DNA from: Octopus vulgaris
Lineage: Eukaryota
NCBI GenBank assembly: GCA_951406725.2
Contig: OX597824.1
Coordinates: forward strand, 43,648,001 to 43,712,000
Reading direction: 5' to 3'
DNA length: 64,000 nt
The notes under the pieces were generated by a model. The model worked only from the letters and a program-made list of their open reading frames with translations, was not told the DNA's origin and ran no database searches. The position numbers and the translations under genes were made by a program. Shown here piece by piece: positions 1,521-9,957 of the stretch. The stretch's first letter is position 1, and each line of letters opens with the position of its first letter.

Positions 1521-3017
1521 ACTTATTTTTTTAAAATTTAATTTTACCCCTGCAGGATTTAAACATAGAACCAAGAAGAAACTGAGTAAATAATCGGAAT
1601 TCATTTGCTATAAAGCCGAAAGAAAATGCACCCTAGAGGGAGCTTTTATCTGTTAATTACTTGGGTAAGCTCAGTCGATATTTTCAACTCACCAAATTTA
1701 CATATGTAAGTTCCTTTCCTACAGTATGCGTAATTCATTTAATATGACGTTCGATAATTCGGTCATCTATACTCCCACCTAATAAATCTAATAAATGATT
1801 TCTATACTTCGGCTCCATGCCAAAAACTTCGTCTCCTGTCTTGAGATGGGTAGGTGGCGTGAAATGACTGATTCGACCTAATCACTCCCAGCACTTGAGT
1901 GTTACTATTTCACCCCTACTCCACCTCTAGGGATATGAAAGGCAAACTCAAGTCATATGAACTATTGGATTTAAACTCAGAAGATAAATAGGCGTGATTA
2001 AATGTTGTCATCCAACTATCTGTTTTCTTTCTAATAAGTGTTTATTGGATTAATAAATAATTAAACATTAAAGGATGAGCTTCCCTCTCTTGTTCATGGA
2101 CAGTAAAACATCTGCGGGGAAACCAAGAGTTTCGGCCCTTGATAAGTCCTTTCAATGTTTTTGTTGCATAACTTCTTTCTCATTTAGGTCAACTCTGATT
2201 GAGCAGGCCTATGGCCACCAGTCTTTTGAGATGTATCTTAGATTACATTATTAAATATGTATATATATGTAGATATATATGTATATATACATGTAGATAT
2301 ATATGTATATATGTGTGTGTATATATATGTATGTATATATATATGCATGTATGTATATATATATATATATATATATATTTGTAGACATATATGCATATAT
2401 ATATGTATATATATATATGAATATGTATGTATATGTATATTTGTGTGTGTGTGTATTTAACTGAATATCTGTTCGTTTCACAATATTTCTATAGTATGTT
2501 AGTACGTTTAAGTTACCGTCAATTAAACAGTTCATCTATCTATTTATCCATCAGTACATCAATATCTTTATGCAGAAATATTTAATATACTATCAAAGAA
2601 GCTAGTTATGTATTTACCTAATTTACATGCATATGTAAAAACATACACACAAATACATATACAGGTGAGTGTGTGAGTGTGTGTACATTAATCAAATTTT
2701 TTTACTGGACAATAATAAATGCTATACAGTATTATGTGTATCTATGCATGTATGTGTGTATACACACACATACGCATACACACACACATACACATGCACA
2801 CATATACAAAGCTGACAGTGACTTTGAAGTTTCGTTTTGCTAGCTAACAGACTGATGATGGTTAGTAAGCTGAAACTTCGAAGTCACTGGCAAATATTTC
2901 CTTGTAAAAATTGATAAATTTGGAGCTCTAGTAAAAAGTATTGAGTGATTCTTCGGTTTAATATTCAGCTGTTTTGATATTACACAAAATAAACGTGCGC
3001 ATACATGGGAGTATATA

Positions 3018-3202
3018 TTGTTTTCTACTCTAGGCACAAGGCCCAAAATTTTGGGGGAGGAGAGGCCAGTCGATTAGGTCTGGTACTTAACTTATCGACC
3101 CCGAAAGGATGAACGGCAAAGTCGATCTCGGCGGAATTTGAACTCAGTATATAAAGAAAGACGAAATATCGCTAAGCATTTCGCCCGGAGTGATAACGTT
3201 TC
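3018..3202 (-). mobile_element. SINE family B copy (host of the adjacent copy), tail type gggccttgtgcctagagtagaaa
   Basis: Minus strand reads gagttcaaattccgccgagatcgactttgccgttcatcctttcggggtcgataagttaagtacc. Confidence 0.8.
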
Positions 3203-3436
3203 TTATTTCTTTATTGCCCACAAGGGGCTACACACAGAGGGGACAAACAAGGACAGACAAAAGGATTAAGTCGATTATATCGACCCCAGTACGTAACTGG
3301 TACTTATTTAATCGACCCTGAAAGGATGTAAAGCAAAGTCGACCTCGGCGGAATTTGAACTCAGGACGTAGCGGCAGACAAAATACTGCTAGGCATTTCG
3401 CTCGGCGTGCTAACGTTTCTGTCAGCTCGCCGCCTT
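3203..3436 (-). mobile_element. Full-length SINE family B copy with LINE-like tail
   Basis: Head aaggcggcgagctgacagaaacgttagcacgcc, B box gagttcaaattcc, Nin-like core catcctttcagggtcgattaaataagtacc, tail tagccccttgtgggcaataaagaaataag. Confidence 0.85.
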
Positions 3437-3725
3437 GAGTTGCCTATGTATGAAGATAAAACGGTAATTTTTACATGTGTGTGAGGATTGGGCGTGTGTG
3501 CGTGTTTGTGCGTGCGTGCCTGCGCGCCCGCGTGTGTGTGTATGTATTCCAAGTACTAGATATCGACAGGTGTGTATAATATCTTTTATTGTTGAAATGC
3601 CAGAAGATAACCTGCTTTGAACCTCATATTTTTATGTTCAAATCAATGATGTATTAGTGGTGGAGCAAGAGCAAGAGGGGGGAGGGCATAGTTCCCAATT
3701 TAGACAGAGACAGATCGGTAAATTA

Positions 3726-3856
3726 TTTTTTTCAGTTTCAGTCATGGGACTGCGGCCATGCTGATGCACAGACTTGAAGGGATCGAACAAATCGAGCCGA
3801 GTGCTTATATTTTGAAGGCTGGTACTTATTCTATCGGTCTCTTCTGCTTAACCGCA
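3726..3856 (-). mobile_element. SINE family A 3' fragment
   Basis: gactgcggccatgctg...ggtacttattctatcggtctc as in 21547-21949. Confidence 0.7.
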
Positions 3857-3949
3857 TTTTTTTCTTTCTTATGAGGACTACATTATTCAATGTGTCCTTC
3901 CTTTGTAAAAGAGTAACGTGTGATTTGAAGGGGGTATCGTTGTGAATAT

Positions 3950-3998
<49 letters not shown>

Positions 3999-4115
3999 CA
4001 GCAGCAGCTATGGTTGTGGTGGCGTTTTTTGATCGGATATCTTTTGCTATACAATATATCTAGAACTATACTATCCTGTGTGTCCTTACAATTTAGAACA
4101 CTTGATATCGATGTA

Positions 4116-4169
<54 letters not shown>

Positions 4170-4525
4170 CGTGTGTGTGTGAGAGAGAGAAAGAGTATGC
4201 ATACATGTATGCAAGCAGGTGGGTGGTAAATAAATGGACGGGTTATTTAGAGTACATTGATAGATAGGTAAGATAGCTATAGTAGTAAGTACGATAGTAG
4301 AATAGACAAGCGCTTATGCAGGTTGTAAGATAGGTAAGTTGGTATTTTATAACAAGATAGACAGCAAGACAGACTGATAGCAAAACAACTAAATAATAGG
4401 TGGGTAGGTAAGCTGACAATTAGGTTAAGCAGATTGGTAGTTACATAGGAACGTTGCTAATCATGGAGAAACCTATGCAGCTAGAGATAAAGTATCAATA
4501 AGCTAGCTACTTACAAAAGCAGGCA

Positions 4526-4985
<460 letters not shown>

Positions 4986-5224
4986 GACGGTTATTTGATA
5001 AGTAGGCAATTTGGTGGACATATGCATGTACCGAGAGGTAAATGGATTGACATATGTATGTACAAGGAGGTAAGTTGGTAGGGAAATAGGTCAGTACATA
5101 AGTAGATAGATGTATTAGTAGATATGAGGAAAGATTAGATGGTTATGTATAATGCTAGGAAGATAGGTAAGCAAGTAGGTACGTAGTAAGCTAGGTAGAT
5201 AGGCAAATCGATGAAATTTACCAA

Positions 5225-5345
5225 AATGCAGTTTGTGTGCAGTGTAGTTGCGAAGCTGGCAGCCAATGTGCAAGCTTTATTGATTACACTGCGACAGTCT
5301 GGCTAGAGAACAGAACACGTCATCGATAGAGATGGCGCTGCTGTA
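5225..5345. promoter_or_regulatory. Possible promoter/enhancer island
   Basis: Unique CpG-containing stretch between microsatellites, with agccaatg (CCAAT box), acgtca (CRE-like) and agatggcgctg (YY1/CTCF-like). Confidence 0.3.
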
Positions 5346-5349
5346 TACA

Positions 5350-5396
<47 letters not shown>

Positions 5397-6072
5397 TCTC
5401 TCACACACACACACATACACACACACACACACAGATGTATACAGCTTTATACACTCATTGATAATGATTTGATTACTGCTTAGCAATAACAGATACACTT
5501 CTAGTCTTAGCATATTTATATATGTATACATATGTATGTGTCTACGTGTGTGCGCGCGTGTATGGTCCTGTGTTCGAATATATGTGTATGAGCTTGTGTT
5601 CGTGCGCACTATTACACCAACTTCTCTCTCTAGCTCGCTCTCTCATACACACACACCCACACATTCTCACACAAAACCATGTTATTGTTAATGATGGTAG
5701 GTTGCTCAACAATGTCGATCGTTGTGGCGGTGTGTGTGTGTGTGTGCGTGTGGCTACATCGTTGGCTTTCACACTCCTATTGATGACAATTTCGATCTAA
5801 TAGCTATCTATATGTGTATGTTTGTAATTGGATGTATTTTGTGTGTGCTTGAGTGGGAAAGAGAGAGAGTGAGAGAGTGAGAGAGAAAGAGGTGCGTTTT
5901 ATAAACAGGAAATAAAGAATTCAATAAAAGAAAATACACAAAGTATTAATAAACCATTATTAGCTGTGATTATTTGGCCCAATATGCTAGGCCTTAGAGT
6001 AGTGACTCCTGTAATATTCTCAGCTCAGCTATAGAGTGATGGATAGACAGATAGATAGGTGGAGAGAGGGGG

Positions 6073-6073
<1 letters not shown>

Positions 6074-6139
<66 letters not shown>

Positions 6140-6354
6140 AAAAGAAAGATGCTCACACACACACACACACACACACGTGTCTGCGCGTCTGTGTGTATGT
6201 ATGAGTAAGTGTTGTCATCACAGTATCATCATCATTACTAATACTGTTTGGTGTTCAGCAGCAATAGCAGGTCCCGATTCTGGCTCAATTCATGTCTATG
6301 TGCGTATCTATATATGTGTGCTTGTTCATTAGTTTGTGTTTGGGTCCTGGTTGA

Positions 6355-6432
<78 letters not shown>
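6074..6432. repeat. (GAAA)n, (CA)n and (TG)n microsatellites
   Basis: Direct reading. Confidence 0.9.
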
Positions 6433-6436
<4 letters not shown>

Positions 6437-6582
6437 TAAGGATGTATGTGTGTATGTACACACACGAACATATACAATTCATATATACCGATCGATCCTT
6501 GAAGGCTGAGAAAATACTAGTCGTGTAGTAAAATCAGTTCAATTAAATAATAACACACTAATAATGGTAGCAATCATCATCG

Positions 6583-6614
<32 letters not shown>

Positions 6615-7045
6615 GCTATTATTCAATGAAAGAGCAGTGCATGCCATCAAAGTGACACTAGAGTAAAATATACGAAGCCCAGTACCTATCATGACTACAC
6701 GTCTGATATGAGTACACCAGGCACATGCATCACAACCATGATCTCATATCAAAATAAACACCGCATGACCTTGCAGGTGGGGCCCAGTTAGAATTTTCTT
6801 CAAGTCGAGTAGTTCATCCCACTCAACAGTCCCTGAATAAGGTTTGTTTAAGGATGTTGAATGAAACATTCATGTTTGTAGACGTAAAAAATTCAAACCC
6901 AAAAGAATTCCTCTCAACTCATAGCTATGATACTCTCCCATTACTTCTGCTCGTGATCAGAGATGCACATATCGTCAACTGCTAAGGGACATGCTCAACT
7001 GGTTAAGTCAAATAACTGACAAGCAAAATATTTGCCGTATCATTA

Positions 7046-7200
7046 TTACCTCCTCCTTTAGCGAAGGCAGAGGTATTGTTTTCAGTCATGTTTGTTTGTT
7101 TGTCCGTGGACAAGATATCTCAACCGCTGGATAGATTCGGATGAAACTTTCAGGGATGTTTGACCTCGTGACTGGCACGAACTGATTAGATTTTGGGATC
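7046..7200 (+). mobile_element. 5' part of a Helentron-associated non-autonomous element (HINE/DINE-like)
   Basis: ttacctcc...gaggtattgttttc start, (gttt)n, aagatatctca, gatgaaacttt; overlaps the 3' piece at 32548 by aactgattagattttggga. Confidence 0.6.
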
Positions 7201-7418
7201 TGTTTTTTTATTACCCATGCGGGTTAACACATAGGTGACAAAACAAAACATGTAAGACATAAAACATATATAAAAAATAGAAATGAATATTATAATGTAT
7301 GAAGACATGAATATGAAAAATGGATTGGAACCACTCGCCCCACTTACGAGTTGCTTCATTTTCTACTTTTTAAATTCTAAACCTTCCAACACATCGATGC
7401 TTGTTTCCTCTAACCTCT

Positions 7419-7561
7419 AAGAGTATATGGTTGGATTTTATTTTTGGGAAGTGGACTGCAGCTGGAGCTCATTCCCAGACTTTACTACGTACTAGTAAAG
7501 TCTGGGAATGAGCTCCAGCTGCAGTCCACTTCCCAAAAATAAAATCCAACCATATACTCTT
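7419..7561. repeat. Palindrome with perfect 69-bp arms and a 5-nt spacer
   Basis: 7419-7487 is the exact reverse complement of 7493-7561; spacer cgtac. Confidence 0.97.
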
Positions 7562-8791
7562 GTATTTTTTCCTCCAGCTTCTTATCGGGTATTACACACA
7601 AGTGATGTTCCTCCACGTTATCATACCCCGCAGTTCCAATACACTTTATGTCCCATTCCGCCAAATCCCTTAACAGTTCGTCGCTAAGCAACATATAAAT
7701 CCTACACTTTTTCCTTCTCTTTTTTAACTTGGAGGAGGGGTTTTGGGTTTCTTTGTATGTGTTTGCCTCTTGTTTTTGTGTCAGACGGGAATGGATAAGC
7801 CTAGTGTCTGCAGGGAGTGGGTGGGTCTGAAAGGGTGTGGGTGGGATGGGTGTGGAACGGGGTTTACAGTTTAGTTCACTTGCCTTTTCTCGTTTTCTTC
7901 CTGTCGTTTTTTCCCATTTATTTTTTCTATTTCCACTACTTCCTTTTCTTTTTCGGTTACTTCCTTTCTGCGGCTCTCTTCTATCTTTTCTTCTGTATTT
8001 TCTGGTCGCTTTTCCTCTGTTTTTTTTTTTTTGGGGGGGGGCTTTGATGTACATTCTGCTCTTATGTGTCCCTTCAGACCACATTTAAAGCAGCATGGAA
8101 CCCTTCCTTCCACCCTGACAGTTATAATTGTTTCTTCCATAATTATTGTTTCCGTAATCTTTTCCATCGTTTCTTTTGAACCCTGGACTATCATCTCCAG
8201 TGATTGATCTCTCCAGTTGATGCACTCTTTTTTCTTGGCCTGGAGCACCACTATGTTGTCCTCATTACCAAAGAGGACCGCATCTGCCACCCAGGTCACA
8301 TCAATCTCCGGTGGGATTCCTTCAACTGTGACTCTTGTTGCTCCCATGCCTCTATACGTGGGCAAAAGCACCACTTCTTTGCTCCGAATTGTCGACGCTG
8401 CATGTTTCCTTGCTGCTGTTGCTGCTGCTGCATTACGAAACCATACAGTTCCAAATGTTGAGCCTCTAGTCAGGTATATTACGTCTTCCCAAATCTGCTT
8501 TAACGCCTTTTCTATTTGTTCTGTCATGATGATGTCTATTCTTCCTTTATTAATTGAAAAGGTTCGATAGATTATCGTCTTTTCCCTTATTCCGTTTTTA
8601 ACCTCTTGCGGGGGCGACATCTTCACTTCGAACCCATCTCGGTTCATTTCTTCTTTGTGTCTTCCGAATTCCCTGATATCCACTTCTTTTTCCTTGCACC
8701 TTGCTGCATCAACAAAATTCCTCTTCTCTTTTATCAGTTTCTGGTCCATTATCTTATCTGCCTCCAACAACTACTCCTCGGACGATGACAT
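7485..8791 (-). pseudogene. Disrupted L1/Tx1-type ORF1 (gag-like) with CCHC zinc knuckle
   Basis: ATG at 8791 (MSSSEE) then an in-frame TAG at 8773-8771; ORF 7871..8770 contains CFKCGLKGHIRAEC (CX2CX4HX4C) after an RRM-like region (RVTVEGIPPE); probable C-terminus in frame 7485..8084. Confidence 0.75.
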
Positions 8792-8818
8792 GTCTGAGTA
8801 ACTATAACTGTTTTCAGT

Positions 8819-8893
8819 ATAGTAGAAGACACTTGCCCAAGGTGTCACGCAGTGGGACTGAACCCGGAAGCTACTTACCACACAGCCACTCCT
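8819..8893 (-). mobile_element. tRNA-derived head of SINE family A, abutting the 5' end of the ORF1 element
   Basis: Minus strand aggagtggctgtgtggtaagtagcttccgggttcagtcccactgcgtgacaccttgggcaagtgtcttctactata. Confidence 0.8.
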
Positions 8894-8949
8894 ACATAAA
8901 TATATAAATATATATAAATATATACATATATTCACATATATATAAATAC

Positions 8950-9880
8950 ATACAATTTTACACATGCCTTACTTAGGGTCCGGGGAGTGTCATCGGCAAA
9001 AAAAAATTTTAACTTTTTGCCTCGGGCGAGCCCACAGCAATATCATATTGTCACCACTACGATTCCCTAAAACTTGAGAACTACACAACCAATTTCATTC
9101 AAATTTTACACATGCCTTACTTAGGGTCCATGTAGTTTTATGGGCAGAAAAAATGTTCAACTTCTTGCCTAGAGCGAGCCCATAGCAATATCATATCTTC
9201 TCCACTATTTCAGTATTACGTGTTAAAAGTGAAACAAAAACATTTCTCTATTTTAAATTAGATACTTTCACTTTAACAATAAGAATAATAATAACAATTG
9301 AATTATATGTAGTAAGTAATAATTAAAATCAAACTAAAGTATAATATAATCGTAACATGACAAAAGTAAAAATAGCAATTGGTATAAAATTGCATCAATG
9401 ACTTGAACTTGAATAAGTGGTTTCACATGAATGGGAATAAATTAAAAATAAAATTAGCGTGCAGAAATGGAATAGTCCAGATGGATAATAAAAAAAAATA
9501 AATTAAAGAAAAGACTATTGTCTATAAAGTATACAATGTAGAGAAAAAAGCAGATTTGAACACATGGAGGAAAGCACCTTCGAAAAGTGTCTTGATGCGA
9601 CTATGAAAGATATCTAATCGGAGGCGGTAAATTCGCCACAATAGAAGCAAGGTTCGAGTCAACGGAGCGTGCAAGGGAGTACTCGACTCGAACTTGCAAA
9701 GTGGAAATATTTTATTTTTACCTTTATATCTGGAACGTAGGACGTCCGGGAAAAAAATTTAAAATGCCCACCACCCCCCAGAAGTAGAGGTAGGCTGGAT
9801 TGTAGCCACACTTCTATACAAGAGGGAGGACAAGATACAATTGATCGAAATTACAAGAGACGGGCTAACAATTCCAGTCT
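8950..9880. mobile_element. Probable non-autonomous Helitron-like element with a ~150-bp internal tandem repeat
   Basis: aattttacacatgccttacttagggtcc...gcgagccc..agcaatatcatat occurs at ~8954 and ~9102; classification tentative. Confidence 0.4.
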
Positions 9881-9957
9881 GTTATATATTTTGAGTATTG
9901 TTATCACTAGCTATATCAAGATATAACTTTGTATTTTGTATTCTATGTGTGTGTATA

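Follow-up and report, generated by a model that had tools for sequence, protein, structure and literature searches.

The element analysed here lies in a window of 64,000 nt of Octopus vulgaris DNA (the whole stretch), and its sequence points to a dead copy of an ORF1-only retrotransposon derived from the Tx1 clade. The family to which it belongs, family W, shares both its 3′ tail and its insertion site with a LINE family that we call Tx1-H, and the copy was probably reverse-transcribed in trans by the ORF2 protein of Tx1-H. The LINEs are taken to be Tx1 elements, following the first-pass annotation of the window.

The three 3′ ends quoted in the first-pass annotation were located at 7207, 3210 and 50948 on the + strand and are the 3′ ends of minus-strand elements (Table 1); its description of the element as a CCHC ORF1 followed by a UTR and poly(A), with no ORF2, was confirmed in the window copy and in the sister copies. 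The weak CCHC match is contained in a 299-aa frame, and no ORF2 is present on the element. ORF1 is longer than that frame: after a switch of frame it takes in a lysine-rich linker and a C-terminal domain and terminates at the stop codon 7363-7365, after which about 160 nt of UTR precede AATAAA and a short poly(A). The copy is dead: it has neither a start codon nor the ~170-nt 5′ UTR present in sister copies, and its ORF1 is interrupted by the stop codon 8771-8773, by a shift of frame within the linker and by the inverted duplication. Of the host repeat, the upstream half is absent here; no target-site duplication is readable for this copy itself, and the repeat head that abuts its 5′ end is presumed to be that of a SINE. 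The arms of the 69-bp inverted duplication are perfect, though the copy is otherwise ~10% diverged from its sisters, and the duplication would either have arisen long after the insertion or be an artefact of assembly. Hyper-editing of the A-to-G type was not seen among the 55 private changes of the copy (6 changes, beside 20 G>A and 13 C>T), and an Rfam scan of 2900-9900 gave nothing but miRNA matches below threshold, located on the palindrome and on simple repeats. Contigs of four sequencing runs contain pieces of the family, and such contigs say nothing on expression or on the presence of the palindrome in other samples.

Table 1. Positions of the features discussed, numbered from the first nucleotide of the window.
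Feature	Position	Strand	Remarks
Abundant SINE-like repeat with Tx1-type tail (3210-3253)	3203..3436	-	
Downstream half of the ~410-nt Helentron/HINE-like host repeat	7046..7202	-	W copy stops at the fixed nucleotide of the target (~7200)
ORF1-only non-LTR retroelement, family W, decayed, 5′-truncated just inside the start codon	7203..8817	-	Four sister copies at 86-90% with the same ORF1-UTR-tail layout
3′ UTR and tail with short predicted stem-loop, AATAAA, short poly(A)	7203..7362	-	
ORF1 remnant: RRM-like region, CCHC knuckle, lysine/proline-rich linker, C-terminal domain	7363..8817	-	
Perfect 69-bp inverted duplication, private to the window copy	7419..7561 (arms 7419-7487 / 7493-7561)	.	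Absent from sister copies
CCHC zinc knuckle	8045..8095	-	PF00098, E 0.0036, under the curated cut-off
Head of another SINE-like repeat (presumed), abutting the truncated 5′ end of the W copy	8818..8890	-	
Host repeat copy with empty target site	32533..32761	-	
5′-truncated Tx1 LINE, family Tx1-A, ORF2 residues 621-1131	50940..52790	-	

Family W consists of a 5′ UTR, an ORF1 with two predicted RRM domains and a CCHC knuckle, a short 3′ UTR and poly(A), and it has no ORF2. A DNA search of its own genome gave at least 80 matches, taken from the best 40 of 2891 candidates; four sister copies are near-full-length, and many more at 64-83% keep the same order of elements. Across loci L001-L030, the sole ORF2 match lies on the opposite strand. 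A one-off deletion was ruled out, since the sister copies share the layout of ORF1, UTR and tail without ORF2. The supposition of a HAL1-like ORF1-only family was thus borne out: ORF1 followed by the tail without ORF2 recurs across copies, the family is multicopy with a shared layout, and it falls in one deep clade devoid of ORF2.

That clade was delimited with ORF1 proteins. In the protein search 150 of 13392 candidates were scored and about 60 loci were examined; the window ORF1 was the seed for all of them, and an autonomous parent nearer to W could lie outside the scored candidates. An ORF1 profile run over 0.89 Mb of fetched DNA gave 135 matches, of which 13 covering fewer than 120 columns and 29 near-duplicate array units were left out. 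The resulting 93-row quick tree, midpoint-rooted with sequences of this genome as its only members, contains one clade of 58 rows (SH-aLRT 99) that comprises 54 rows without ORF2, four undetermined and no autonomous row, and whose protein identity reaches down to about 43%. A careful tree of 33 hand-picked rows recovered the same ORF1-only clade (support 99/95). No ORF2 start was found within 1.5 kb in any of the 83 clade members having at least 1300 nt downstream; one member, L177, has a 5′-truncated ORF2 piece 408 nt downstream. An HMM trained solely on LINE and SINE tails matched 74 of the 83 members, mostly 600-870 nt past the knuckle, and it matched none of 20 autonomous ORF1s. Four tandem arrays account for 38 of these 83 members, and 36 of the remaining 45 have a tail match, two of these being SINE copies.

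The ORF1 of the W clade has mostly been under purifying selection between lineages. Nine of ten comparisons between ORF1-only lineages gave dN/dS of 0.11-0.26 (W versus L006 gave 0.61), several of the deeper ones at dS above 1.5, which is near saturation; the comparison value for the autonomous family Tx1-B is 0.14-0.15, and within W the ratio is 0.59, as expected for decaying copies. PF00098 matched at E<=0.5 in 12 of 14 aligned relatives. For one relative with an intact ORF1, L129, rather than for the window copy, structure prediction gave tandem RRM-like domains N-terminal to the knuckle (mean pLDDT 58, Foldseek E 7e-5, best Z 8.3). A PDB sequence search with ORF1 gave matches confined to the knuckle region, and the search for homologs outside this genome found just two Octopus bimaculoides proteins.

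The W ORF1 is 29-33% identical to that of Tx1-A (E to 1e-25), 43-44% to that of Tx1-B and 40% to that of the Tx1-H group. Topology tests rejected a single clade of W with Tx1-H (AU p=0.0004) and of W with Tx1-A (p 1.4e-6), so the W ORF1 stems from an old ORF1-only lineage and not from a recent deletion in Tx1-H. A clade uniting W with W2, a lineage of ~73% nucleotide identity to it, was rejected as well (p 8e-6); W is placed away from W2, in the midst of lineages whose targets are mariner-like and piggyBac-like repeats. W and W2 have a 3′ UTR body in common, about 75% identical over 140 nt.

Several further groups lacking ORF2 were seen. Another 10 ORF1 rows with no ORF2 form a second clade (SH-aLRT 96; L074, L073, L116, L177, L143, L091, L185, L172, L076), in which only three rows have a tail match. 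Family Y (L111-L118, L128) is young and ORF1-only, with intact frames of ~470 aa, and occupies C2:138.77-138.80 Mb, C17:67.74-67.76 Mb, C14:37.73-37.76 Mb and C3:113.97 Mb. Its three long arrays hold 10-14 head-to-tail units of ~1.75 kb that differ in their junctions, two units including ~85 nt of target flank, which suggests that the arrays grew by repeated retrotransposition. A decayed Tx1-type ORF1 fragment in the window (9487-9858, +) belongs to the repeat lying next to the Y arrays at their 3′ ends, and this repeat appears to be their target. Two internally deleted derivatives of W were found at L134 (C4:163.455 Mb) and L011, one an ORF-less copy of 5′ and 3′ parts, ~190 nt long, at the host site and the other with an in-frame deletion in ORF1.

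The host of the W insertions is a non-coding repeat of ~410 nt; as read from L138 and the window, it has a subterminal inverted repeat of 9 nt and a hairpin at its 3′ end, and on this structure we assign it to a Helentron/HINE-like type. Its target site is empty in 304 exact copies in the genome. Among 10 W copies with a 3′ end, six stop at one nucleotide of the host repeat and four elsewhere. An exact pattern of tail plus site gave eight matches (control, 0): four W-type, two W2, one 30-nt 3′ piece of a third ORF1-only lineage, W3 (L138), and one Tx1-H LINE 3′ end. The W3 piece is bounded by a perfect 21-nt duplication; it had been considered a SINE tail at the host site, a reading that was dropped when its sequence matched W3. 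No SINE was seen at the site, the lone SINE among nine pattern matches fitting it over 8 nt only (control, 1). The family bears the marks of target-primed reverse transcription, namely poly(A), 5′ truncation and target-site duplication. Off-target W copies have duplications of 23 nt (four mismatches) and, twice, of 12 nt (two mismatches); two of them, L004 and L018, keep several host-like bases past the poly(A), and L004 also keeps ~20 nt of upstream host. These duplications and carried host bases argue for independent retrotransposition with a site preference, not for hitchhiking. Separately, L194-L197 (C27:9814.9-9815.5 kb) form a minisatellite whose 60-80-nt unit consists of the W2 tail and the first bases of a target-like 5′ start.

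Tx1-H is a third LINE family, other than the Tx1 of the window, and its 3′ end lies at the same host-repeat nucleotide as that of W. The search for it scored 40 of 1246 candidates and gave 30 loci, of which seven end at the host site or at a site-like element start, four at a mariner-like site and three at another position within that host. Like the other LINEs of helper type, it belongs to elements with an APE-RT-zinc-finger ORF2 behind a knuckle ORF1 and with a target preference. ORF1 followed by an ORF2 start was recovered in two of 20 extended regions of the Tx1-H group (L170 and L173, both broken), and the full-length copy L170 starts inside the host site. Fixed sites are also used by sister ORF1-only lineages, in mariner-like (L007, L008) and piggyBac-like sequence (L019, L020, L023, L026), and the mariner-like site of L007 and L008 is that of the four Tx1-H loci, the LINE ends L147, L148, L151 and L164 lying there. 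The mariner-like, piggyBac-like and SINE labels are putative, taken from a reading of the flanks rather than from a library match. A further Tx1-type endonuclease domain fragment, 44% identical to the Tx1-A ORF2, lies at 43055-43552 (+) of the window.

Tails were compared in the 40 nt that precede the poly(A) signal, with 2000 shuffles (p floor 0.0005) and 1782 AATAAA-anchored background windows; they were called by HMMs, and 50 extracted LINE ends were kept after five had been discarded as mis-calls. The window element matches the Tx1-H tail at 31/40 positions (p 0.0005), a value reached by 12 of the background windows (the highest rows viewed were tails of the families), and the group score of W to Tx1-H is 18.8. 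The first-pass annotation had proposed a 3′ tail shared by the element, the SINE and the Tx1 LINE of the window. The motif is indeed common to the element, the SINE (27/40, p=0.0005 to the element) and Tx1 LINEs; the match to the window Tx1 is weak (24/40, p=0.0145, reached by 139 of the 1782 background windows, real tails included), and that of Tx1-A to the SINE is 25/40 (p=0.0135). A weak 4-bp terminal stem is predicted for all tails (42-sequence consensus, -2.9 kcal/mol), with a covariation term of 0.05 and two-sided changes in two of its four pairs. W best fits one variant of the Tx1-H tail and W2 the other. W3 (L190, L193) uses the same site with a poor tail match to Tx1-H (3.5-9.5), and the tails of ORF1-only copies at the mariner-like site are no closer to the LINE tails at that site than to others; therefore, tail and target are not always coupled.

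The long tail was found on 35 of 94 SINE heads in the 0.89 Mb of fetched DNA. It scores 11.2 to Tx1-H and 11.8 to other Tx1 families, and the helper of the SINE is likely to be one of the LINEs of this Tx1 radiation. Its proposed reliance on the ORF2 of the window Tx1 fits poorly with a tail score of just 4.9 to Tx1-A. A search with a LINE-style tail pattern found no LINE with exactly the tail of the SINE, its one match being itself a SINE. Rfam gave no tRNA match in 2900-9900, and ARAGORN found 0 genes; decayed SINE heads are often missed by such searches. Nine of the 35 tails run directly into an internal site of another copy of the same SINE, an arrangement to which window 3080-3203 belongs, and in L198 such copies follow one another in a chain.

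Taken together, the shared tail and site suggest how W may have been mobilised by a LINE ORF2 protein. The ORF1 protein of W itself would package W RNA, and the ORF2 protein of Tx1-H would recognise the last 40-60 nt, with the short stem-loop before AATAAA, nick the host repeat and prime reverse transcription. At either end, transcripts would extend into the host by a few bases, and the transcribed host bases may help to guide the ORF2 protein; the host-like bases at off-target sites would be found there because transcripts run into the host in this way. As the W ORF1 does not come from Tx1-H, the tail match was likely acquired, or kept in step, later. Tentatively, and with somewhat less than even confidence, we suggest that an ancient ORF1-only lineage outlived its parent LINE and radiated into many families by switching Tx1 helpers, taking the tail, 5′ start and target of each helper while keeping its own selected ORF1.

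Other explanations were weighed against mobilisation by Tx1-H. It had been proposed that the Tx1 of the window serves both W and the SINE in a closed three-member system. Tx1-A does have the same terminal motif and a nominally significant tail match (p about 0.014 for both pairs), is abundant (10614 candidates in the genome) and includes a copy with an intact 1133-aa ORF2, but its tail scores are the lowest among the LINE groups (4.5 to W, against 18.8 for Tx1-H, and 4.9 to the SINE), its tail model matches only one of five full-length W copies (10.7 bits) and not the window copy, and 29 of 30 Tx1-A ends, the window copy being the exception, are directly followed by (ATT)n or (ATC)n, whereas W ends in the host repeat. 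A role of Tx1-A as common helper is therefore very unlikely. The related proposal that ORF1 and ORF2 reside on different elements, each depending on the other, could draw on ORF2 3′ fragments directly upstream of ORF1-only units in L140 and L162, but these fragments are 5′-truncated, and extension of the Tx1 family of the window in the 5′ direction found an ORF1 of its own in full-length copies (L061-L064). Tx1-B, a second autonomous family, which is inserted in (TC)n, likewise has its own ORF1 (15 tree rows), as does the Tx1-H group. The split is thus refuted for the three families examined, and we give it next to no credence.

That W instead arose by deletion from an autonomous family whose ORF1 is much closer to its own, with ORF1-only forms having arisen many times as in HAL1, is improbable. 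The fraction of ORF1 candidates scored and the second clade without ORF2 leave it some room, as does the recurrent loss of ORF2 reported for HAL1 (PMC5753468) and for Drosophila telomeric elements (PMC13534243); against it stand the absence of autonomous rows from the 58-row clade, despite its span in protein identity, and the 3′ UTR body common to W and W2, of which only the last ~60 nt are common with Tx1-H. An origin by passive copying, in which a single insertion spread with its Helentron-like host and had no target specificity, would agree with the similar divergence of W copies (86-90%) and host flanks (83-95%) and with a copy of the site at the 5′ end that differs from the one at the 3′ end alike across W copies. 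It would not account for three ORF1-only lineages and one LINE at the same nucleotide, the separate placement of W and W2, the truncated insert with its perfect duplication, off-target copies with duplications of their own, or the many exact empty sites. This explanation is already largely refuted and remains extremely unlikely.

Each ingredient of mobilisation by Tx1-H is known elsewhere. HAL1 of mammals is likewise a non-autonomous LINE derivative with only an ORF1 protein and a poly(A) end (PMC5753468, PMC5786205). In contrast to HAL1, W comes from the Tx1 clade and not from L1, its ORF2-bearing ORF1 relatives being Tx1-type; it has a fixed insertion site and a specific tail shared with a putative helper; and it lies within one deep clade, whereas HAL1 is said to have arisen on several occasions. 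HeT-A and other ORF1-only telomeric Jockey elements, as well as Ag-Sponge of the CR1 clade, also have ORF1 only and need the ORF2 of another family (PMC5786205, PMC13534243), as W would by our reading, and head-to-tail arrays, too, occur here in relatives. Ancestral ORF1-only lineages yielding new ones are described for Drosophila telomeric elements, in clades of two to six families (PMC13534243). Unlike these elements, the W clade is of Tx1 type, is not telomeric, targets sites inside other transposons and is larger and deeper in our sample. Tx1L in Tx1D, the crocodilian Tx1-Mar with SINEU, and Kibi provide precedents for sites in DNA transposons or microsatellites, for a non-autonomous passenger at a common target and for tandem insertions, and Tx1-B resembles Kibi in targeting (TC)n (PMC4494074); the W passenger differs from SINEU in encoding a selected ORF1 protein and in having a Helentron-like host. 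That host, as assigned from structure, resembles the non-autonomous Helentrons HINE and DINE-1 in being non-coding and in its subterminal inverted repeat and 3′ hairpin (PMC4067079).

PMC5786205 lists LINE derivatives with ORF1 alone in three clades, L1, Jockey and CR1. In the literature searched, which extends to neither Repbase reports nor subscription papers, we found no description of one derived from Tx1. The accessible portions of PMC4758252, PMC4824008 and PMC13282606 give no Tx1 partner for an octopus SINE and no ORF1-only family; the main text of PMC13282606 has 0 mentions of ORF1, and its repeat library may already contain these families. We place W beside HAL1, HeT-A and Ag-Sponge, as a Tx1-derived member of the same kind. 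If helper switching is true, it would amount to a protein-coding retroposon with the SINE-like habit of changing partners. With several pairs of helper and passenger in one genome, each pair at a fixed target that differs from those of the others, two questions can be put to the test: what leads a passenger to retain an ORF1 protein of its own, and whether the choice of target is set by the helper endonuclease, the RNA end or the ORF1 protein.
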